A stretch of DNA of 64,000 bases from a virus. Lineage: Duplodnaviria > Caudoviricetes. Location of the stretch: IMG/VR virus record IMGVR_UViG_3300020577_007160, positions 1 through 64,000 of that record. The stretch is one strand, 5' to 3'. The position numbers were made by a program, and so were the translations under genes. The notes below the pieces were generated by a model, which saw only the letters and a list, made by a program, of their open reading frames with translations, was not told the origin of the DNA and made no database searches. Below, piece by piece: positions 46,133-62,712 of the stretch (position 1 is its first letter; each line of letters starts with the position of its first letter).

Positions 46133-46696
46133 CTACTTTGAAAATAAAGTATTCCAAATCAACTCAACATTATTTTTCTGGTCTTCTAATGTGTTACTAG
46201 GCAACAAAGTCAATTTATGAGGATAATGTTCCTCTATATTGGAATACATTGTCCTACGACCTTTAAGGAACTTATCTGATTGATTATTATCGGATCTTGC
46301 TTCTCGTCTTGAATTCAAGACATCGTCATCGACTTTTAAAATAAACAAAGAATAATCAACATTCAAAGAATCAAGAGTCTCAAAAAAATTCTGCTTGAAA
46401 AATCTATCACCTTCAAACAAAATAGTATAATCCATGAAAACATTGTTTTCAACACAGAAATGTACTAATTCTTTTATTGATTTTATAGCAATCATAGAAA
46501 GACGATCTGTTCCAGAAAATAAAACACCATCTTCATAAATCCCTAGAACAATAATTCTGGGATCTAATGTTGGATACTTATATCCTCTAAGAAGATTAAA
46601 TTTAAAATCATAACCTGTTCCTAATTTTTCTAGGATAGATTTTACTATTCCAGATTTTCCGGTTCCAGGTTCTCCACCAATACATATGAATTTCAT
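46133..46696 (-). CDS. P-loop nucleotide kinase, 5-hydroxymethyluracil-DNA-kinase-like (base-modification associated)
   Basis: IGGEPGTGKS Walker A, LGIYE..FSGTDRLSM, ILFEGDRFF, RREAR...QSDKFLKGR. Confidence 0.7.
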   Translation of the reverse strand: MKFICIGGEPGTGKSGIVKSILEKLGTGYDFKFNLLRGYKYPTLDPRIIVLGIYEDGVLFSGTDRLSMIAIKSIKELVHFCVENNVFMDYTILFEGDRFFKQNFFETLDSLNVDYSLFILKVDDDVLNSRREARSDNNQSDKFLKGRRTMYSNIEEHYPHKLTLLPSNTLEDQKNNVELIWNTLFSK

Positions 46697-51239: not shown

Positions 51240-52067
51240 TTACTTGGTGCTTCCTAATCCACCCCTGATGGGCTTATCAATTTCTGATAATGAAATGGGA
51301 ATGAACTCAACAGACGGAGTATTTTTGATGAATCGCAACTGAGCTACCCTCATACCTGCCTGCAGGACAACACTTTCCCTATTGCCAAGATAAAGAAATA
51401 TAAATTTTATGAAGTCTTCTTTTCCACAATAATCCGAATCAATTATTCCTACACCAGTTGGCATGGTTACTCCAGCTTTAGCTAATGACGATCGAACTTG
51501 AATTTCAATATGAAATCCTGATGGTGGTTCTATGATCAATCCCGTATCAACTATCACTGGAGTATTTGGAAGAAGAATAACCTCTGTTGGAAGAAAAACA
51601 TCATAGCCATCTGAGAATGGGGTCATTCTCTTTGGCATTGGAGTCCCATACTTATTATAAATACGAGCAGATAAATACTTGGAATCCGTATCTTTAAGAT
51701 ACGTCTTTAATGTATCTTTATAATAAGAAGACTCTAATAAATCTTTCCCAATAGATTTTAATTCATCTAATGCTTTTTTGAATTCAGAATTCAAAGAACC
51801 AATATTCTCAACAAGAGAATCTACGTCATCCTTTTTATTCAAAATCTTTCGAACAGAAGTAGATTCTACTTCCTCTATTTGAGTAAGATGAGAAAGAATA
51901 GAATTTATTCTTTGATTCAATAATGCCAGAAATATGACATAATGACGTTGTGCTTTATCATGAACAACGTTCTCAAATAAAGTCTTTATTTTATTGTACT
52001 CTGGAGAACGCGACGTAAGACTCAGAATAAAATCTTCATCAATAGTCAATAAAGTTCCATTACTCAT
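51240..52067 (-). CDS. dut: Trimeric dUTPase with ~130-aa helical N-terminal extension
   Basis: Motifs SDGYDV, VRSSLA, GIIDSDYCG, RVAQL, RGGLGST. Confidence 0.9.
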   Translation of the reverse strand: MSNGTLLTIDEDFILSLTSRSPEYNKIKTLFENVVHDKAQRHYVIFLALLNQRINSILSHLTQIEEVESTSVRKILNKKDDVDSLVENIGSLNSEFKKALDELKSIGKDLLESSYYKDTLKTYLKDTDSKYLSARIYNKYGTPMPKRMTPFSDGYDVFLPTEVILLPNTPVIVDTGLIIEPPSGFHIEIQVRSSLAKAGVTMPTGVGIIDSDYCGKEDFIKFIFLYLGNRESVVLQAGMRVAQLRFIKNTPSVEFIPISLSEIDKPIRGGLGSTK

Positions 52068-53151: not shown

Positions 53152-54549
53152 TTATCGGTCTAACCTTAATCTCTTGAATGTTGGAAATCTCAATGAACCA
53201 TCTTTTGTTTTTTCCTGAAATTCTACTTCACATAATTTCCCAATTATAGATTCCTTACAAGTATGAATGTAAGAAAAATATATTCTCTGAGAATCAGAAA
53301 AACCACTTCCAACATTGCAATTAGTTCCATCTGAAGATTCTATTGTCACTGCGCCAAGAAAAGAAGGAACATGGGAGAATAACTCCTCTGCAGATTCTTG
53401 GAGATTCAGTTCTAGTACTGCTTTTCTGCATTGGGCTAGGGTTGGCTGGGATGAATACTTCCCCGACCCTGCTACAACATCTACAATAGTAAAATCCTCA
53501 GTATAAAATTTCTTGACCTTCAACCAATTTGAAGATCGTTTCCCCTCGTAGGGGGAATCAAGATTTTTAATCACCAGACCTTCGAATCCATCCTCTATTG
53601 ATTTGTCTAGTAATTCCAATAAATGCTGATTAGACTGTATCTTTGTTCCAGTAACAATAACAATTCTATTATCTTTTTCTATATCCTCTAAAACTCGTTT
53701 TCGATCCTCTAATGGGATATTTGATTTTCCATTTAAGAAATCATAATGAAGAACTGAGTCAAAAATATAAAATTTTAATTTTGAAACATCGGAATGAACC
53801 TGCAAAGATTTTACTATTGATACGGTTGAATTCCAATCCCCCGCAAATAATTCCCCATCTAAAATATAATCCCGATTGAGAATTGGTTCTACTAACGGTA
53901 GAAACTGATTTAAATTTTCTTCTGGTAAATTTCTAAAATCTCGGGACAAAAATGTTATGGCATTATTATGTTTTATGCAACACGATCTCATGCCATCTAT
54001 TTTATATTCTGCTATCCAGTTTTCGTTTTCAAAATCTATGTTCATTTCTGGATTCCACGTTTCACAGGTCTGAACATCGTACTTTGGTTTTAATTCTGGA
54101 TAAACCTTACTGATAGTTCCAACGGATACACCAGTGACAAATTTCTTATCAAAAAATCTCTTATACCAAAATCTATAAGATTCATCAGGTAACGACTTAA
54201 GAAATTTTAATAAAACATCACGTGCCTCAAACCCTGTTATTTTTCTTGTAGATAACGTTTCTACAAAAGTAGAAAAACTTGTAAAAATTTCAGAATCATT
54301 TTTGAAAACATTTTCGGATTTAATATCTAAATCCTCTTCTCGAAAAGAAGAAGTAGTTACCCCAAGAGTAATTAAGTTATTAAATACAAAATGAGAAATC
54401 TGAATTAAAAACTGATTGGAAGAAATAGATTTTAAAAGTCTTATCTTTTCGTTTCTTCCTGAAACATTTTCAGCGGAAGTTAAAACAGATATAAATTCAG
54501 ATATTGAAGAAAAAGAATTATTCATAGTATAATCTAAAAGTAAAATCAA
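53152..54549 (-). CDS. lig: ATP-dependent DNA ligase
   Basis: Motif I EYKIDGMR, III LDGEL, IIIa FYIFD, IV EGLVIK, V WLKVK, OB-fold VGSGFS, VI SLRFPTF; likely start MNNSFS. Confidence 0.95.
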   Translation of the reverse strand: MILLLDYTMNNSFSSISEFISVLTSAENVSGRNEKIRLLKSISSNQFLIQISHFVFNNLITLGVTTSSFREEDLDIKSENVFKNDSEIFTSFSTFVETLSTRKITGFEARDVLLKFLKSLPDESYRFWYKRFFDKKFVTGVSVGTISKVYPELKPKYDVQTCETWNPEMNIDFENENWIAEYKIDGMRSCCIKHNNAITFLSRDFRNLPEENLNQFLPLVEPILNRDYILDGELFAGDWNSTVSIVKSLQVHSDVSKLKFYIFDSVLHYDFLNGKSNIPLEDRKRVLEDIEKDNRIVIVTGTKIQSNQHLLELLDKSIEDGFEGLVIKNLDSPYEGKRSSNWLKVKKFYTEDFTIVDVVAGSGKYSSQPTLAQCRKAVLELNLQESAEELFSHVPSFLGAVTIESSDGTNCNVGSGFSDSQRIYFSYIHTCKESIIGKLCEVEFQEKTKDGSLRFPTFKRLRLDR

Positions 54550-55470: not shown

Positions 55471-56367
55471 TTACTGCCGGAACATTAGGAATGGTAACTG
55501 TTCCGGCTTGAAAACCTGAGATTTTTCACAAGCGGATTTGAAAATTTCAGGAGAAACTTCATTTGGGTCACCGTCCAAACCCACCACCACACCTGCATTG
55601 CAGCCGTACCGCAAGAACGTATTACGCACACGCTCGCGGTCTTTAATAGAAACATCTGGATCCAAGCAAACGAGAACTGTTTTGAACCTATAGGAGATTT
55701 GTTGATACTGCGAGAATGACAGTTTTTTACCCAAAACTGCTATACCGGATTCTCCAGCTGCAATTGCGGAGAAGCAACCTTCGCACAAAATACAATGATC
55801 TGTTGTCACGTTATTGATATTGTAAACGATATCAGTTTTGGGAACAGCAGCATTCACATACTTTGGGATAGCATGACGGTAGGAACGAGCAGTAAAATAT
55901 ATAATAGAAGAATTTTTGTATTCAGGTATAACAATTCTTTCTTTGAGATTATTCTTTCCAGATAATAACTTATAATGATTTATCTGATCTTCCGTTATGT
56001 TTCGAGAACAAAGATACTCAAAAGCATCTGACCCTCGAACAATTGGATCCCCGATTTCAGATTGTTCAAATACAATTGGTTTCCTGAATTCTGGAAAACT
56101 TAGTTTTGATAATCTGTTTTTTATATTTGTCAAATCATATCGGTCAATGTCCAAGTGGAGGTCAATCAAGGAATCGAGATCTTTGAGTTCTCCTTGGACA
56201 CCACATCGAAAACAATAATAAAAATTCTTAAATATGTTGACTAATAAATGATTCTGAGTATCTGCTCTTTCTTCAAAAGGTTTTTCAGTTTTCCGGTATT
56301 GACAATAGGGACAACACGTATAAACCTTTCCACCTGAGGCACGAACCTTATCAAAATCTATAGTCAC
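55471..56367 (-). CDS. DNA primase (Zn finger + TOPRIM)
   Basis: CPYC...CFRCG zinc-binding domain, YLCSRNI, RIVIP, ARSY, PKYVN, LCEG, CLDPD. Confidence 0.85.
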   Translation of the reverse strand: MTIDFDKVRASGGKVYTCCPYCQYRKTEKPFEERADTQNHLLVNIFKNFYYCFRCGVQGELKDLDSLIDLHLDIDRYDLTNIKNRLSKLSFPEFRKPIVFEQSEIGDPIVRGSDAFEYLCSRNITEDQINHYKLLSGKNNLKERIVIPEYKNSSIIYFTARSYRHAIPKYVNAAVPKTDIVYNINNVTTDHCILCEGCFSAIAAGESGIAVLGKKLSFSQYQQISYRFKTVLVCLDPDVSIKDRERVRNTFLRYGCNAGVVVGLDGDPNEVSPEIFKSACEKSQVFKPEQLPFLMFRQ

Positions 56368-57074
56368 TGAGCCAATCCTTCTGCTAATTCTTTCACAATG
56401 AAACGAACAATATCTGAATTCGCATATATAAAATCAAATTTAGAATTTGTTATTATTCCTAGTCCTGACTTGGATATTGGACGAATTAAGGAATTACCTG
56501 ATTTTATTTCTTCAAATGTATAAAATAATAATTCTAAGTAATCACAGAACTTTATTATAAGATCAAGTTCATTCACAAATTCCTTATAAAGTTCTTGATC
56601 TATAGTACTAGGATCAGCGAATAACCCACAAAAATATTTCAGTCTTGAATTAACTTCCTCTGGAGTATTTGAAAAATCTAATAACAAAGGCAATTCATCC
56701 GCGAAACATGATGACGTAAAACATTCTAATATATAATCTCGTTCTCCTGAATTCTCAAAAAATTCTGAATTCTTAAACGTATAAACTATATCCCCTGTTA
56801 CAGATTCCCCAAGGTCATGGTATAGTGAAGACTTAAGTACATATAATTCTCCAATTGCTAATATATTTGAATCCTCTATTTTAGAATTAAAATAGAACAA
56901 CAAAGATTTATAAACCAATGAAGCTAAAATAGAAACATTATAAGAATGCTCTGCTACTGATTGGGACTTATTTGTTCGAACTAAAGAATATCGCTGAATA
57001 TTATTCAGATTTCTTGAAAGAAAGATATTATCAACAATGTTAGCCATAGCAGTAAAACAATAGTAATTAAACAA
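56364..57074 (-). CDS. HD-domain nucleotide phosphohydrolase (YfbR/DatZ-like)
   Basis: IQRY, QSVAEHSYNV, YHDLGESVTGDI, KFCDYLE. Confidence 0.85.
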   Translation of the reverse strand: MFNYYCFTAMANIVDNIFLSRNLNNIQRYSLVRTNKSQSVAEHSYNVSILASLVYKSLLFYFNSKIEDSNILAIGELYVLKSSLYHDLGESVTGDIVYTFKNSEFFENSGERDYILECFTSSCFADELPLLLDFSNTPEEVNSRLKYFCGLFADPSTIDQELYKEFVNELDLIIKFCDYLELLFYTFEEIKSGNSLIRPISKSGLGIITNSKFDFIYANSDIVRFIVKELAEGLAQ

Positions 57075-57598: not shown

Positions 57599-58912
57599 TT
57601 AATTATCTTCTTTTTCTAGTATTCGAGAATGTTCTAACTTCGTTGTCAAAAACACAGATTCATTTTCTATCCCTTTTCGCATTTTGGCAGTGTATGCTCT
57701 CATTTGATTTAATACCTTTTCTTCCGCTGTTTGATTCAGAGAAATAATCCCATGGGCAAGGTGTGCTTTTTTCGAGGATTCAGCTAGATCCCCTTTCGTG
57801 ATTGTATCCTTATTCCAAGCATCAACCTTGGGCTGTGAAGCACTCAACACAGGACAATTATAAGAAACTGCAAGGGATATTAAATCTGAATATAAGTTCC
57901 CACGCTCTTCATATGAATTCTGATTTTTACTATTCTCAGTATTCAGAGAATTCATATTATCCGCATAATCAATGATTATTAAATCAGGTTCAAATCCATA
58001 ATTATATTTCAATCGGTATAAATGGGATTTAATAGCGGAAACCGTTACAGTATGAGGATCAAAATACTTAATGAAAAACATCCCACAATCTTCAAATACT
58101 TTGAATTTTTCCAAGAGGACATGTGAAGGTAATTTCAAAACATCGTCATGACTCAGTTCTGCAATATTAGAAACATGTTTAAATTCTATTTCTACCTCAG
58201 GGACTTCTAAAGTATAAAATACAACCCTCTTTTTTGCCATTATATTATAAGCAGAAACATTAGAAAGAAATGTTGTTTTCCCTCTGCCTGGTGGTGCGAC
58301 CACAATATAAAGAAATTTTCGGAACATTCCTCCTAACATTTTTTTATCTAATTTAGGATAACCCGTTGATATACTATTTTTGACAGCATACTCTTCGCTG
58401 TATCGGGATTGAAGAGTATTGACATTGCTATTAAAATATAATCCATAGGATAAGGGCTTACCAATAGATATTGAATCCTGAATAATGGAAATTGCATCTT
58501 CTAAATTTCCACCCCTTTCAAGAATTGAAACAACACGAGATAACCCTTGCTTCAAGGATTGTTCCTGAATAAATCGAAGAACATAATCTACAACGTCTTC
58601 GATTTTATCAACATCCATATAAAATATTTCATCCATCAAAGATAAAATACTTTCAATTGTATCCTGTTGAGTTTCTGTTTGTTTTAAATTTCGGGTAATG
58701 AATCGTGCAAATGAATCCTTGTCAGGTAAGTAATTCCATTCGTTGACAAAAAATACAAGATTCTTGCATATAATCTGAAAATAAAAATGAGTGAAATAAC
58801 TTGGCTTTATTAAATCCAACCCATAAGAAAATAAAAATTTTGGGTCTCTTGTCATCATGGCCAGAATTTTTTTCTGGTAATTAACATCAAAATTAAACTT
58901 TGTTTCAATCAT
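57599..58912 (-). CDS. Replicative DNA helicase (DnaB/T4 gp41-like, SF4)
   Basis: ISTGYPKLD, APPGRGKT, YTLEV, IIIDYAD, SASQ, LAES, AKMR. Confidence 0.9.
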   Translation of the reverse strand: MIETKFNFDVNYQKKILAMMTRDPKFLFSYGLDLIKPSYFTHFYFQIICKNLVFFVNEWNYLPDKDSFARFITRNLKQTETQQDTIESILSLMDEIFYMDVDKIEDVVDYVLRFIQEQSLKQGLSRVVSILERGGNLEDAISIIQDSISIGKPLSYGLYFNSNVNTLQSRYSEEYAVKNSISTGYPKLDKKMLGGMFRKFLYIVVAPPGRGKTTFLSNVSAYNIMAKKRVVFYTLEVPEVEIEFKHVSNIAELSHDDVLKLPSHVLLEKFKVFEDCGMFFIKYFDPHTVTVSAIKSHLYRLKYNYGFEPDLIIIDYADNMNSLNTENSKNQNSYEERGNLYSDLISLAVSYNCPVLSASQPKVDAWNKDTITKGDLAESSKKAHLAHGIISLNQTAEEKVLNQMRAYTAKMRKGIENESVFLTTKLEHSRILEKEDN

Positions 58913-58982: not shown

Positions 58983-60044
58983 TTAGATTTTTAGATCTTC
59001 ATAGATTTCTAACTCAGGTAATGTTCCAGTTTCTAAAAACGTCTCCATTTTCTTCTTTGATATTCTTGCATTCTTAGAATTGAATCCTGATAACAATCTT
59101 TCTTTGCGATAATCCCAGAATATCTTGAATTCAATTCCTGGCCATGGATCCTGTTCTACCTGACGAATTTCCTCAGCCTGACGATCCAGGTAATATCCAA
59201 GATATCTTCCACTCCGCTTACGAAACAGTTTCTTGAATGAACATAATGCAGTTTCCATACGAAAATAATTCACGTCATGGGCAACATCTGGATATCTTCT
59301 TTTGATTTCCCTGATGATACCATCAGCCTTATTTTGAAGATAGGAAACTTTATCATTGTCATACTTGATATCCCTATAGAACTTCTTATTATCCTCATAG
59401 TAGCGACTTGTCCATTCATCCTTCCCAACCACTAGGCACATGCCATTCCGATGAGAGTCGCTGCCAGAATCCTCAAATAACAGACTCGTGGGTTCTATTG
59501 GTAATCCAACGCATTCCGCTAATGCCTGGCAGTAATACCAGGACATGTATCTGCCGAATTTATGAAATTTGGTCTTTGCAAAATTAAATACTTTCTTATA
59601 ATTCTCTTTTTTATCTTGGGAAGAACATAAAGCCATGAACGTATCCAATTGGTTTTCCCCAACAGCTTCTTTATATGATAAATACATTTCTGGTAAATAA
59701 CCCTTTGCGTAACGAGTATCAGTTTGATAGCGTAAATGATTATAATTTTTAGTATTCCAAATCATTAATCTTTCAATATTAACATTCTCATAATCTGGTA
59801 TCTCATTCCAAATACAATATGATGTTACAGGTTGATATGTACAACCATAAAGAAATACAATCCAAAATTTTTGTTCTATGTTGTATTCCTGCCGATCAAA
59901 AATGTAATTTAATAACGCTATTGGTGGGTCAACATCAGTGGTTCTCAATCCCCAAACAAACCATCGTATGAATGCTTCTATTCTATTTTCTCTGAGTCGA
60001 AAATCTAAACCAGTTTCCATTCTTTTATCATTGTATTGAGGCAT
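58983..60044 (-). CDS. Amino acid:DNA transferase (aGPT-pyrophosphorylase clade-2-like, HhH fold); DNA base hypermodification
   Basis: DVDP, W.VFLYG..Y, YQTDTRY, HKFGRYMSW, SHRNG, METALCSFKK, YLGYY. Confidence 0.75.
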   Translation of the reverse strand: MPQYNDKRMETGLDFRLRENRIEAFIRWFVWGLRTTDVDPPIALLNYIFDRQEYNIEQKFWIVFLYGCTYQPVTSYCIWNEIPDYENVNIERLMIWNTKNYNHLRYQTDTRYAKGYLPEMYLSYKEAVGENQLDTFMALCSSQDKKENYKKVFNFAKTKFHKFGRYMSWYYCQALAECVGLPIEPTSLLFEDSGSDSHRNGMCLVVGKDEWTSRYYEDNKKFYRDIKYDNDKVSYLQNKADGIIREIKRRYPDVAHDVNYFRMETALCSFKKLFRKRSGRYLGYYLDRQAEEIRQVEQDPWPGIEFKIFWDYRKERLLSGFNSKNARISKKKMETFLETGTLPELEIYEDLKI

Positions 60045-60466
60045 TCATTAATTTGATCTAAAACAATATGAGCAATTTCATTGCCACTTATCCAAGCAGG
60101 ATCTTCAATACCATTATATTTCCCCTGAGAAAAACTAGCTAAAGATACTAATTTGTCAGTACATTCCGGGAAATCTTTTATCATATCTTCCTTGTGTCCA
60201 GGTATCATATAAAGAATCTTATCTGACCATTCAATCAATTCCTTTGTTACATGTTTTGATCGATGATCCTTGACCCCAATATGGATATCATAAGATTTTA
60301 ATGCTTCTCGAATTTTCTTTCCCATAGGAGACTTCTGACCAGAACATTTGAACTTTGTTCCTGCGGAATCTACTTTGTGATCCGTTCCTTTGAGCATAGC
60401 TTCTGCCATATAATGGGCTGCAGCAGAACGATTTTTGTTACCAGTACAAATCATTAAAATATTCAT
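60005..60466 (-). CDS. Low-molecular-weight phosphatase (LMW-PTP/ArsC fold)
   Basis: CTGNKNRS (CX5R P-loop), VDSAGT, HRSK, IEDP general acid. Confidence 0.9.
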   Translation of the reverse strand: MNILMICTGNKNRSAAAHYMAEAMLKGTDHKVDSAGTKFKCSGQKSPMGKKIREALKSYDIHIGVKDHRSKHVTKELIEWSDKILYMIPGHKEDMIKDFPECTDKLVSLASFSQGKYNGIEDPAWISGNEIAHIVLDQINECLNTMIKEWKLV

Positions 60467-61410
60467 AATCCTAAATCTTCCTTTTTTAATTTTCCTTCAG
60501 AAATTAGTTTGTCATAATTCGCCTTTGCAACTGGTCTGGAATTATGATAAATATTTGTCATTTGAAATATTTTATCAAGTTCATAATTATAGGGGTGAAA
60601 TTCCTGAAATCCATGTTCAGAAAATTCAGAAATTAATTCTTGAGGTGTTAATTGAAATTCAGAAAATACTGCTGATAAAAATCTGGAAGGATAGGATAAA
60701 GCATTATACATTTTATTGAGATCCCTTGACATTGTGAAATGTCGAAATTCAATTGTTTCTGTTTCAGAAAATACTTGCTTCAAATTGACTGCTTCTCTGA
60801 CAACAAGATGCCATAACAACTTGCCAGACTTGTCTTTTGCTGCATGAGCCTCATAAAATTCCTGAGGTGTTTTAGCCAACATCATTTTGGTAAAAACATT
60901 CTTTGGAACAACATAATGATGTGAACGCTTACGACGCTTATAACGTTCCCATGCACCTTTGTATTCTGCTTCAGAAGAATAATCAGATTTAATTGGAACT
61001 GGTATTGGTTCAATTAAATTATAAAGTTCTTTTCCATAAAATTGTGTGTATTTTGCTATTCGTTTTAAAGCGGGTAAATTGTTTTTCAATCCAGGTATAT
61101 GGATATGAACATGAAGATTCGTAGTGAAATTGAAATATTTGTCTCTATTGTTATCTTCTAAAATACCAAATGTATCATAAATACCTTTTACAATATCTAA
61201 TAACTTACTTGGAGTAGATGCTATTGATGTTTGGATTTCACCACCAAATTTATTAAATTCATGCTTTGGGTCATTTGCTGTTCCATTAACAGAATTCATT
61301 ATTGAACCATCTTTCGTACAGAACTTACTACCCTCTGGTAGTTTAGTACGAACATCAATATCCCCAATTTCGAGTTCACAACCCAAACTATAATTTGTTA
61401 AATCTAACAT
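60463..61410 (-). CDS. Putative amidoligase (COOH-NH2 ligase, glutamine-synthetase-like fold)
   Basis: GCELE, DGSI, GGEI, LHVHI, AVNL and TIEFRHF motifs. Confidence 0.75.
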   Translation of the reverse strand: MLDLTNYSLGCELEIGDIDVRTKLPEGSKFCTKDGSIMNSVNGTANDPKHEFNKFGGEIQTSIASTPSKLLDIVKGIYDTFGILEDNNRDKYFNFTTNLHVHIHIPGLKNNLPALKRIAKYTQFYGKELYNLIEPIPVPIKSDYSSEAEYKGAWERYKRRKRSHHYVVPKNVFTKMMLAKTPQEFYEAHAAKDKSGKLLWHLVVREAVNLKQVFSETETIEFRHFTMSRDLNKMYNALSYPSRFLSAVFSEFQLTPQELISEFSEHGFQEFHPYNYELDKIFQMTNIYHNSRPVAKANYDKLISEGKLKKEDLGL

Positions 61411-61469
61411 AATCCCTTTTGTATATTCTTTTAAGTTTTCAACAGAACGATTAAAACTTTATAAAAAAT

Positions 61470-61495
61470 AAATGCCTATCACTAGATAGGCATTT
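61470..61495 (-). terminator. Intrinsic terminator fused to promoter motif 61444-61466
   Basis: AAATGCCTATC-ACTA-GATAGGCATTT. Confidence 0.8.
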
Positions 61496-61520
61496 AAATA
61501 CAAAACCAGAATATTAAAAT

Positions 61521-61928
61521 CTAAACATTAAATGGATATTTTTCAAGATCTATTTCTGCCAATTTTTTAAATTTTTGACCTTTGAAAAAGAATACACGAG
61601 GATCTTTAATTTTAGTTACACTAATGAATTTATTCACTGCTAAAATAAAAGATTTAAATTCCTTTGTATCCTGATTACCCTCATCATCCTCTTTACAAAA
61701 ATTCCATTTTTTAGATCCTTGAAGATCTCTATAAACACTATAAATTATATTTTTTGCCTCATCTATGTAACATATTCCAATATTTCCAAATAATAATTCA
61801 TCCCAATAAGTGTTGAAATGATACTTCCCAACATTACTTATTGTTTCTGTTATAAAGTCTTCATTCACTTTTCTTTCGAGTTTCTCTAGTCTCTCCACAA
61901 GAGATAAAGATGATCTTCTGTTGATCAT
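61521..61928 (-). CDS. Leader-family protein 5 (putative head-packaged internal protein)
   Basis: MINRRSSLSLVERLEKLERKVNEDFITE. Confidence 0.7.
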   Translation of the reverse strand: MINRRSSLSLVERLEKLERKVNEDFITETISNVGKYHFNTYWDELLFGNIGICYIDEAKNIIYSVYRDLQGSKKWNFCKEDDEGNQDTKEFKSFILAVNKFISVTKIKDPRVFFFKGQKFKKLAEIDLEKYPFNV

Positions 61929-61973
61929 TGTTGATTCTTTCTAAGATATTGTTGAATTGAAAACTATATAACT
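61867..61973. repeat. ~105-bp dispersed repeat, copy B
   Basis: Near-identical to 57476-57582. Confidence 0.9.
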
Positions 61974-62007
61974 TAGTTCATAAATTATGAACAATCTTTT
62001 AAATCAC

Positions 62008-62712
62008 TTACAATCTAATATTCTGGTAATCAATACCAATATCAACCGAATAAGAAGAAACTAATGAAAAATCTGATTCAGATAATATATATAACTCTCC
62101 AGCATTTAACTGAATTAAATTCTCATTTATGCCAGACCTTTTAAAGACTTCCTGAGTAGAAGAAACAATAATAGAATCGTCACGCTGGCATGACCATGCT
62201 GGTCTTGTTGAATTCCGAAAAGAAAACATTTTACCATGTTTCCATAATCCTACCACAGCCATTGATGCTCTTGGAAACCGCTGGATTACATTGATTCCCT
62301 TTTGTAGGTAATTATGAATTATTTCAGCATCATTAGTTGTTACAGGTTCAATATCATATAACTCTTTCCAATATTTGGGATCTGCCTGAGTCAATACTCC
62401 GTTCATAGCAACGGAAAGATTATTGCCAATATCTATTGGTTGATTGTGTTCTAAGCCAGAAGTAGAATATCGAGAATGACCAATTAATGAAATTAATTCT
62501 GAAGACAATAAATCTTGTTTGATCGTAGAAAAATGTTTCTCTAAAAAAGATTTTCCATCGGTTGGCTCTATGAGAGTCTTAATTTTATTATCAAATAAAT
62601 AGGAAACACCCGTTGCATGTTTTCCACGTATGCTATTTTCTACTATAAAATTAGATATCAACTCAATATTATTGAGAGATGACTTTCCTTTGAAAGCTAA
62701 AATAGAACACAT
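62008..62712 (-). CDS. Class II (Ntn) glutamine amidotransferase
   Basis: M-C start (Cys1 nucleophile), RGKHATG, GHSRYST, NQPI, MNG, NDAE, RPAW. Confidence 0.88.
   Translation of the reverse strand: MCSILAFKGKSSLNNIELISNFIVENSIRGKHATGVSYLFDNKIKTLIEPTDGKSFLEKHFSTIKQDLLSSELISLIGHSRYSTSGLEHNQPIDIGNNLSVAMNGVLTQADPKYWKELYDIEPVTTNDAEIIHNYLQKGINVIQRFPRASMAVVGLWKHGKMFSFRNSTRPAWSCQRDDSIIVSSTQEVFKRSGINENLIQLNAGELYILSESDFSLVSSYSVDIGIDYQNIRL

Follow-up and report, generated by a model that had tools for sequence, protein, structure and literature searches.

The 64,000-nucleotide stretch analyzed here (hereafter the window) comprises the first 64 kb of the 179,512-bp virus record IMGVR_UViG_3300020577_007160 of IMG/VR, which carries direct terminal repeats and stems from an uncultivated T4-like phage of ~180 kb. 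Towards its end it encodes a glutamine amidotransferase, an amidoligase, a phosphatase, and a DNA transferase, most likely parts of a thymidine hypermodification system with a core of 5-hydroxymethyluracil (5hmU), a DNA kinase, and a transferase of the AADT family. We propose, with a probability of roughly 0.4, that amidotransferase and transferase constitute a glutamine-dependent DNA aminotransferase that would form 5-aminomethyl-deoxyuridine (5-aminomethyl-dU) in a single step. Amidoligase and phosphatase would then build a new acyl-aminomethyl thymidine, possibly gamma-glutamyl or dephosphorylated phospho-acyl, and would act as a portable module for three amine-forming routes. This mechanistic assignment is put forward as a testable hypothesis and not as a result. 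The genes concerned are the following:

62008..62712, minus strand: class II glutamine amidotransferase (GATase), 234 aa, stand-alone, Ntn Cys1
61521..61928, minus strand: leader-tagged cargo gene orf135, 135 aa, inserted
60463..61410, minus strand: probable Amidoligase_2 protein of the carboxylate-amine ligase superfamily, clade A2, 315 aa
60005..60466, minus strand: low-molecular-weight Cys phosphatase (CX5R), 153 aa, closest to YwlE
58983..60044, minus strand: AADT/aGPT-Pplase2-family DNA transferase of the 'T-type' subfamily, 353 aa
46133..46696, minus strand: P-loop kinase of an AADT-adjacent family, 187 aa

An original prediction made from the letters of the window had described this block as a hypermodification operon, and its four open reading frames were all found at these positions on the minus strand. 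Amidoligase and phosphatase overlap by 4 bp, phosphatase and transferase by 40 bp, and the GATase is set apart from the other three by the single leader-bearing gene at 61521-61928, as had been claimed. Dozens of independent viral contigs have the same genes together and in one orientation, a grouping far beyond chance.

Two sets of related loci were collected from IMG/VR. The first was seeded with the amidoligase and comprises 80 loci, with the usual order TET/JBP, GATase, an optional TET-associated glycosyltransferase (TAGT) or GT1-like glycosyltransferase, amidoligase, phosphatase, ADDT-domain transferase, and kinase. A second group within this set, which includes the isolate phage Simon, combines amidoligase, phosphatase, kinase, HMUDK_hel, and a gene resembling thymidylate synthase (TS) with a glycine-type ADDT and has no GATase. 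The second set was seeded with the T-type transferase, relatives of which are encoded on at least 551 stretches in IMG/VR, and the best 80 of these were kept; many of them carry ParB, TET/JBP, GATase, GNAT, ADDT, and kinase genes without amidoligase or phosphatase. Both sets together yielded 63 non-redundant T-type loci with GATase in 63, TET in 60, kinase in 57, amidoligase in 39, GNAT in 36, and phosphatase in 27, in the combinations amidoligase, GATase, and phosphatase (27 loci), GATase and GNAT (24), and amidoligase, GATase, and GNAT (12). TS-like genes and HMUDK_hel are found in 1 and 5 of the 63, respectively.

The GATase follows the subtype of the transferase. It is encoded in 63/63 non-redundant T-type loci with enough flank, 24 of which are devoid of an amidoligase, and in none of ten glycine-type loci, nine of which harbor an amidoligase. 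Moreover, GATase and ADDT are fused in at least seven protein clusters (P0086, P0087, P0088, P0089, P0091, P0094, and P0102). P0086, present in two assemblies and found by a search for longer GATase relatives, joins an N-terminal Met-Cys GATase to a T-type ADDT at the C-terminus, which shares 33% identity with the window transferase. The others, all representatives at 50% identity, were recovered by an exhaustive search with P0086, yielding P0087, P0088, and P0089 as full-length fusions and P0091, P0094, and P0102 as two-stretch matches. All of these contain GATase_6 plus ADDT according to Pfam. In the phage studied here both proteins are separate, and a search for longer forms of the window transferase found none. 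As the GATase tracks the transferase subtype with or without amidoligase and is recurrently fused to it, we assign it to the transferase, which it most likely feeds with ammonia to give 5-aminomethyl-dU, judging by these sequence relationships.

The same distribution bears on the chemistry suggested by the original prediction, in which an amino acid is appended to 5-phosphomethyl-dU, the amidoligase activates its carboxyl group, and GATase-derived ammonia yields an amino-acid-amide thymidine, with the phosphatase editing leftover phospho-5hmU. Known thymidine hypermodifications tend to be cationic, and neutralising the carboxylate would be in line with this trend. GATase and amidoligase are neighbors in many loci, amidoligase/GATase pairs are a recurrent phage module according to PMC10580990 (citing Iyer et al. 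2009), and Y281 of the transferase, together with basic residues, could hold a carboxylate (PMC13458397). However, 24 T-type loci encode a GATase but no amidoligase, and the glycine-type loci that possess an amidoligase all lack the GATase. The searches made brought up no fusion of GATase and amidoligase, as opposed to at least seven clusters of GATase-transferase fusions. Finally, glycine-type loci pair the amidoligase with enzymes that delete the carboxyl group, so that none would be left to amidate. Carboxyl amidation is therefore improbable. The interpretation of the original prediction is partly supported overall: its core of 5hmU, kinase, and AADT is backed by the TS homolog, the HMUDK_hel protein, and the cassette-type kinase of this genome described below, and we agree that the product is not a described base. 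Its view of the gene set as unusual does not hold: the set occurs widely in metaviromes, and the association of its genes had been published before (PMC8989533, PMC13229309).

The GATase starts with Met-Cys and keeps C2, R29-G30, R81-Y82, N104-G105, and D128 in register with PurF/GlmS, these glutaminase residues being invariant in 26 aligned homologs. A GATase profile matches the glutaminase domains of PurF and GlmS; the protein's own Pfam score is 17.7 against a threshold of 27, and a phmmer search of the PDB with the GATase alone gave no match, a profile being needed. PurF, the glutamine phosphoribosyl pyrophosphate (PRPP) amidotransferase, displaces pyrophosphate from PRPP. Cys1, Arg-Gly, Arg-Tyr, Asn-Gly, and Asp of its glutaminase domain have counterparts here, and the chemistry we propose, ammonia displacing a phosphate-type leaving group from carbon, is alike. 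Glutamine-dependent formation of 5-aminomethyl-dU is proposed because the pairing of a class II glutaminase with a phosphate-expelling enzyme parallels PurF. Unlike in PurF, the acceptor domain would be a DNA transferase of the HhH type, unrelated to that of PurF (PMC13458397) and acting on a DNA base, and the two parts are separate proteins in this phage.

The transferase matches PF18724 (ADDT; E 2e-21, 77.2 bits at a cut-off of 26.2). A profile of it and its relatives matches the solved PaMx11 glycinyltransferase (8z2m and 25qc) with E 1e-53 to 1e-56, whereas phmmer with the transferase alone found no match in the PDB, again requiring a profile. Cys268 (within ETALC) is invariant and D37/D39 (within DVDP) are conserved, corresponding to the catalytic Cys and the N-terminal Asp of the family; in PaMx11 gp46 these are Cys247 and Asp24, and Trp146 and Lys150 contact glycine (PMC11472151). 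The window enzyme has Y166/Y170 in place of Trp146/Lys150 and Ser269 in place of Lys, leaving only the Tyr (Y281) of the Lys/Tyr pair that is said to hold the glycine carboxyl in glycine enzymes (PMC13458397). Glycine-type members have the motifs FGPWIGFK and LCKWKSHxxGHY in common with PaMx11 gp46; T-type members are marked by KFGRY..WFY, an inserted SGSxSHRNG, and ETxLC[SA][FY]KK...GRY. As the T-type pocket differs at the glycine-contact positions, its donor cannot be read off the characterised enzymes: by fold and catalytic residues the protein belongs to the family, and yet an amino-acid donor does not follow from these sequences. Few pocket residues set the choice of donor in the AADT family, which also transfers diamines, as reported in a 2026 NAR paper. 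We predict that the T-type transferase swaps the phosphate of 5-phosphomethyl-dU for GATase-derived ammonia.

Alternatively, GATase, amidoligase, and phosphatase could build a small-molecule donor, such as an amino-acid amide or an amine derived from a phosphorylated precursor, which the transferase would attach in one step. Characterised family members do use free metabolites (glycine, serine, putrescine, and 1,3-diaminopropane; PMC8989533, PMC13458397), the T-type pocket is unlike all characterised donor pockets, and a phosphatase would suit a pathway starting from a phosphorylated metabolite. Gene fusions speak against a soluble pathway: the DNA transferase occurs joined to GATase, to phosphatase, and to kinase, and the amidoligase occurs joined to a TAGT domain, which argues for action at DNA. 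Besides, the same amidoligase-phosphatase pair resides in glycine-type loci with complete PaMx11- or M6-like tailoring, where a special donor would be needless, and we regard donor synthesis as unlikely.

The amidoligase by itself has no Pfam match at E 0.01. PF12224 (Amidoligase_2) is matched by 17 of 26 aligned homologs that are 33-79% identical to the window enzyme (best E 1.4e-9), and homologs were retrieved with E 1e-37 to 1e-168, many of them PF12224 members; its profile found no solved sequence relative. The AlphaFold model reached a pLDDT of 34 from the single sequence and of 97 with a 74-sequence alignment, and all 50 top structural matches of this model are YbdK, glutamate-cysteine ligase (GCL), glutamine synthetase (GS), PafA, or Dop (Z 8.1-9.6). 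The predicted structure is a GS/GCL-type fold in which acidic, His, and Arg residues of the active site are conserved; E12, E14, E58, H100, H102, E221, and R223 are invariant in the alignment and would map onto metal and ATP sites. Among the four families that had been named for the block, ADDT and the phosphatase family LMWPc were recovered directly by Pfam, amidoligase and GATase via homologs and profiles and not by their own Pfam scores. A tree of 86 amidoligases, built quickly with SH-aLRT support only and placing the window enzyme on a long branch, separates a GNAT-associated clade from a phosphatase-associated one (A2). The window enzyme belongs to A2, where its nearest neighbors stem from glycine-type loci and from loci with amidoligase and phosphatase only (L002-L005, L082).

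This ligase family meets three routes that end in an amine: GATase with T-type ADDT, glycine-type ADDT with flavin lyase, and glycine-type ADDT with radical SAM/PLP enzymes. L076, L081, and L006 place the amidoligase beside a DAO-family flavoenzyme (PaMx11 gp47-like), that of L081 matching the solved PaMx11 flavin-dependent lyase gp47 (8z2o) with E 1.6e-71, and L070, L007, L077, and L084 place it beside an M6-like radical SAM enzyme, accompanied by a PLP enzyme in L070 and L007. According to Lee et al. 2021, the flavin lyase route turns N-alpha-glycinylthymidine into 5-aminomethyl-dU (5-NmdU), subsequently acetylated by an acetyltransferase, and the radical SAM and PLP route of M6 leads to 5-aminoethyl-dU (5-NedU; PMC8989533). 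Both routes remove the carboxyl group, leaving a primary amine exposed. The amidoligase slot of sister cassettes is taken by a GNAT, in some cases instead of the amidoligase and in others in addition to it. Since the amidoligase is present wherever a primary amine is made, by whichever route, we propose an acylation of this amine with a free acid and ATP; on this comparative basis the enzyme most likely acylates a DNA-borne primary amine. Isoelectric points failed to separate DNA-acting from other enzymes. In L015, L048, L052, and L059, two tandem amidoligases, one from each deep clade, precede an oppositely oriented phosphatase, suggesting two successive ligations.

The phosphatase is a PF01451 (LMWPc) protein (E 3e-15) with a C7-TGNKN-R13-S14 loop and a D122-P123 pair that are at least 96% conserved across 56 homologs. 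No conserved Cys other than C7 was found among these homologs, ruling out an ArsC-like, thioredoxin-coupled reductase role. Among solved structures, YwlE arginine phosphatases match it best (E 6e-13; classical low-molecular-weight protein tyrosine phosphatases, about 1e-4). It adjoins the amidoligase in 72 of 80 loci, its association is specific to clade A2, and it ranks as an obligate partner of A2 amidoligases. Fusions of the phosphatase include those with amidoligase (P0071, P0079, L077, and L084), with a kinase (L013, where the fused kinase matches Ploopntkinase3), and with ADDT (P0101, 487 aa, from the exhaustive search with P0086). The latter search also returned a fusion of P-loop kinase and ADDT (P0202, 567 aa), and a fusion of TAGT with Amidoligase_2 was observed in P0063 (546 aa). 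The phosphatase could dephosphorylate the acyl donor after ligation, take off phosphate that persists on 5-phosphomethyl-dU, or break down an N-phospho by-product by hydrolysis.

The likeness to YwlE also fits an explanation in which the amidoligase-phosphatase pair merely hitch-hikes with the thymidine genes and serves protein or cell-wall modification, a role suggested in 2009 for amidoligase clusters of the phiEco32 type, or McsB/YwlE-like phosphorylation and dephosphorylation on nitrogen. One locus group (L002-L005, L082, L083) does contain the pair without a nearby GATase or kinase, and the homolog in Vibrio phage 2.275.O lies beside 7-deazaguanine rather than thymidine genes. On the other hand, an ADDT-family gene is located within 10 kb in 74/83 loci with the pair, fusions link the phosphatase to kinase and ADDT, and the pair recurs in three thymidine pathway contexts, making an independent function a long shot. 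The Vibrio phage locus (L089, MG592671.1 332034-337242) combines a distant amidoligase homolog with QueF-like, queuosine-biosynthesis, Ntn aminohydrolase, and GTP cyclohydrolase I genes, a hint that 7-deazaguanine bases, too, may be tailored by the ligase family. In one locus group the pair is found beside a divergently oriented gene for a ~1,730-aa protein without Pfam match (L082:4716-9914 and L083:95-5269).

Upstream steps of the pathway were sought in the whole genome. A TS homolog is encoded outside the window at genome position 72558-73673 (PF00303, 73.9 bits); it is the sole PF00303 homolog, and no ThyX was found in this genome. Among solved proteins it is closest to MilA, a CMP hydroxymethylase (E 2e-21; best TS E 2e-11), and with E 2e-52 it matches a family of TS-like proteins encoded within related hypermodification cassettes. 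A Cys and an Asn align with Cys146 and Asn177 of TS, the latter position being Asp in MilA. With Asn rather than Asp at this specificity position, a dCMP hydroxymethylase, which would be natural for a T4-like phage, is ruled out. The dUMP hydroxymethyltransferase that the original prediction suggested looking for elsewhere in the genome is thus represented by a predicted candidate. The kinase at 46133-46696, which the same prediction had drawn into the pathway, matches PF18751 weakly and has a conserved Walker A motif. It scores E 4.5e-40 against a hidden Markov model (HMM) built from kinases adjoining AADT genes, bearing out its membership of this cassette-linked family, and its homologs adjoin ADDT in 56-59 of 80 loci. 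A separate protein with the HMUDK helical domain (PF18723, E about 1e-47 to 1.6e-46) is encoded at genome 87582-88514. Both parts of a 5-hydroxymethyl-dU (5hmdU) DNA kinase, P-loop kinase and HMUDK_hel, are accordingly present as separate, distant genes, with the activity predicted from sequence, and 46133-46696 is predicted to be the catalytic part. No TET/JBP gene was found in this genome, and therefore we assume that the phage uses the pre-replicative 5hmU route; as TS homolog, HMUDK_hel, and kinase occur in the same genome, the pathway appears complete. At genome 85924-88514 (minus strand, outside the window), the HMUDK helical-domain gene lies directly upstream of a gene for a YAcAr/SLOG-family protein (E 3e-15), with a weak phosphoribosyltransferase-like protein encoded two genes further downstream, and these genes may form another nucleotide-modifying set.

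Taken together, the pathway would proceed as follows. The TS homolog, going by its family, specificity residue, and context, would make 5-hydroxymethyl-dUMP, to be put into DNA instead of T. P-loop kinase and the separate HMUDK_hel protein would phosphorylate 5hmdU in DNA, as expected from homology to characterised 5-HMUDKs. The GATase would then hydrolyse glutamine and pass ammonia to the T-type transferase, displacing the phosphate and leaving 5-aminomethyl-dU, a step proposed because of the obligate co-occurrence and recurrent fusion of the two genes. From its context, Amidoligase_2 would use ATP to join a free carboxylic acid to this primary amine, giving a 5-(acylaminomethyl)-dU and providing an ATP-dependent alternative to the PaMx11 acetyltransferase and to the GNAT of sister cassettes. 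Glutamate is a precedent donor in the amidoligase superfamily (GS, GCL, PuuA, and PafA), and by such precedent the acid would most likely be an amino acid, attached for example through the gamma-carboxyl of glutamate. The YwlE-like phosphatase, together with the clade A2 amidoligase, would remove a donor-borne phosphate or clear a phosphorylated by-product on DNA, and the final base would be an undescribed, amide-bearing one. For the pathway as a whole, a post-replicative thymidine hypermodification with genes scattered over the genome and an undescribed final base, we see an even chance.

Several points weigh against this proposal. Each step is inferred from homology, synteny, and gene fusion. 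The terminator-like hairpin and the inserted gene split the GATase from the other three genes in this phage. The T-type pocket retains Y281 and several basic residues, which would be compatible with an anionic amino-acid donor. The identity of the acyl donor is guessed from precedent within the superfamily, and the model assigns the phosphatase no necessary role. Co-occurrence counts, moreover, come from related phages that are not independent, with the first set seeded by the amidoligase, and are to be taken as descriptive.

If correct, the glutamine-dependent DNA aminotransferase would be an enzyme kind not yet described, and the pathway would add glutamine-dependent DNA amination and ATP-dependent acylation of a DNA base to known enzymology. 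Hypermodified thymidines shield phage DNA from restriction and other nucleases and are a source of DNA-modifying enzymes for biotechnology. Two published surveys, by Lee et al. 2021 and in a 2026 PNAS paper, place amidoligase and GATase genes beside thymidine pathways without assigning functions (PMC8989533, PMC13229309), and the proposal would also supply these functions. The PNAS paper, on phage T-dioxygenases, reports GATases, P-loop kinases, and AADTs as consistently linked, with GNAT among the co-occurring domains (PMC13229309). Neither paper mentions the phosphatase, nor an ammonia or aminomethyl chemistry for the GATase.

A close characterised counterpart is the 5-acetylaminomethyl-dU pathway of Pseudomonas phage PaMx11, with glycine:DNA transferase gp46, flavin-dependent lyase gp47, acetyltransferase gp48, and 5-hmdU DNA kinase gp49 (Lee et al. 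2021, PMC8989533; structures PMC11472151). Both systems share 5hmdU in DNA, a P-loop kinase, an aGPT-Pplase2-family transferase with a catalytic Cys, and a 5-aminomethyl-dU intermediate (predicted here) followed by N-acylation, and it is sister loci of the window amidoligase that carry the gp47 homolog. In contrast, the window phage possesses neither flavin lyase nor acetyltransferase; a GATase and a divergent transferase subtype, in which the glycine-contact residues are not conserved, are predicted to reach the amine in one step, and an ATP-dependent amidoligase and a phosphatase stand in place of the acetyl-CoA enzyme. Also close are thymidine hypermodification clusters of metaviromes initiated by TET/JBP (5mYOX), comprising ParB, GATase, P-loop kinase, and AADT (PMC8989533, PMC13229309). 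These have the GATase, T-type transferase, and kinase families in common with the window phage and in many cases its amidoligase-phosphatase pair as well. Here, however, neither TET/JBP nor ParB is encoded nearby, the pathway genes are spread over ~40 kb, and the phage follows the pre-replicative dUMP-hydroxymethylase route with a separate HMUDK helical protein, rare among T-type loci. According to PMC10580990 and PMC11945000, citing Iyer et al. 2009, amidoligase and GATase clusters of phiEco32/LUZ24-type phages likewise pair a class II GATase with a member of the Pfam family Amidoligase_2; those clusters, by this account, contain ATP-grasp and GGCT genes without AADT or kinase and were proposed to modify the cell wall, whereas the GATase here is predicted to partner a DNA transferase. 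The cassette is hence of an already known, uncharacterised kind, and this phage is a variant that joins the pre-replicative 5hmU route, GATase and T-type transferase, and the amidoligase-phosphatase pair.

The window has a G+C content of ~31%, and nearly all of its genes are on the minus strand. A megablast of the region against GenBank phages gave no match, and a protein search of isolated phages matched only phage Simon and Vibrio phage 2.275.O. The block is situated among replication genes, as had been noted:

57599..58912, minus strand: DnaB-like replicative helicase (PF03796 E 4e-18; phrog_19 E 9e-63), directly downstream of the block
55471-56367: primase, flanking replication gene
53152-54549: ligase, flanking replication gene

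The helicase is context and lies outside the pathway. The inserted gene 61521..61928 carries the common N-terminal leader of this phage, and no homolog of it was found in any of ~160 related loci; orf135 and orf212, both without homologs in related loci, were ruled out as pathway members. A strong terminator-like hairpin follows 61521-61928 at 61496-61469 on the minus strand and, with the inserted gene, sets the GATase transcriptionally apart from the other three genes in this phage. This hairpin and another at 62838-62811 on the same strand have 12-bp stems with a common ATGCC stem motif followed by T runs and close the leader-tagged genes orf135 and orf212, respectively, fitting a 'cassette' layout. 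Two further minus-strand genes of the window, one for a 275-aa protein with a C-terminal dUTPase/dCTP-deaminase-like domain (51240-52067) and one for an HD-domain YfbR-like phosphohydrolase (56364-57074), are candidate genes for depleting dTTP/dUTP, comparable in this to gp18 of Acinetobacter phage 15599 (PMC13458397). Outside the window, the minus strand at genome 67931-70471 encodes an 846-aa family A DNA polymerase in which an Intein_splicing domain match at residues 392-478 (E 1e-10) separates the exonuclease part from the polymerase part.

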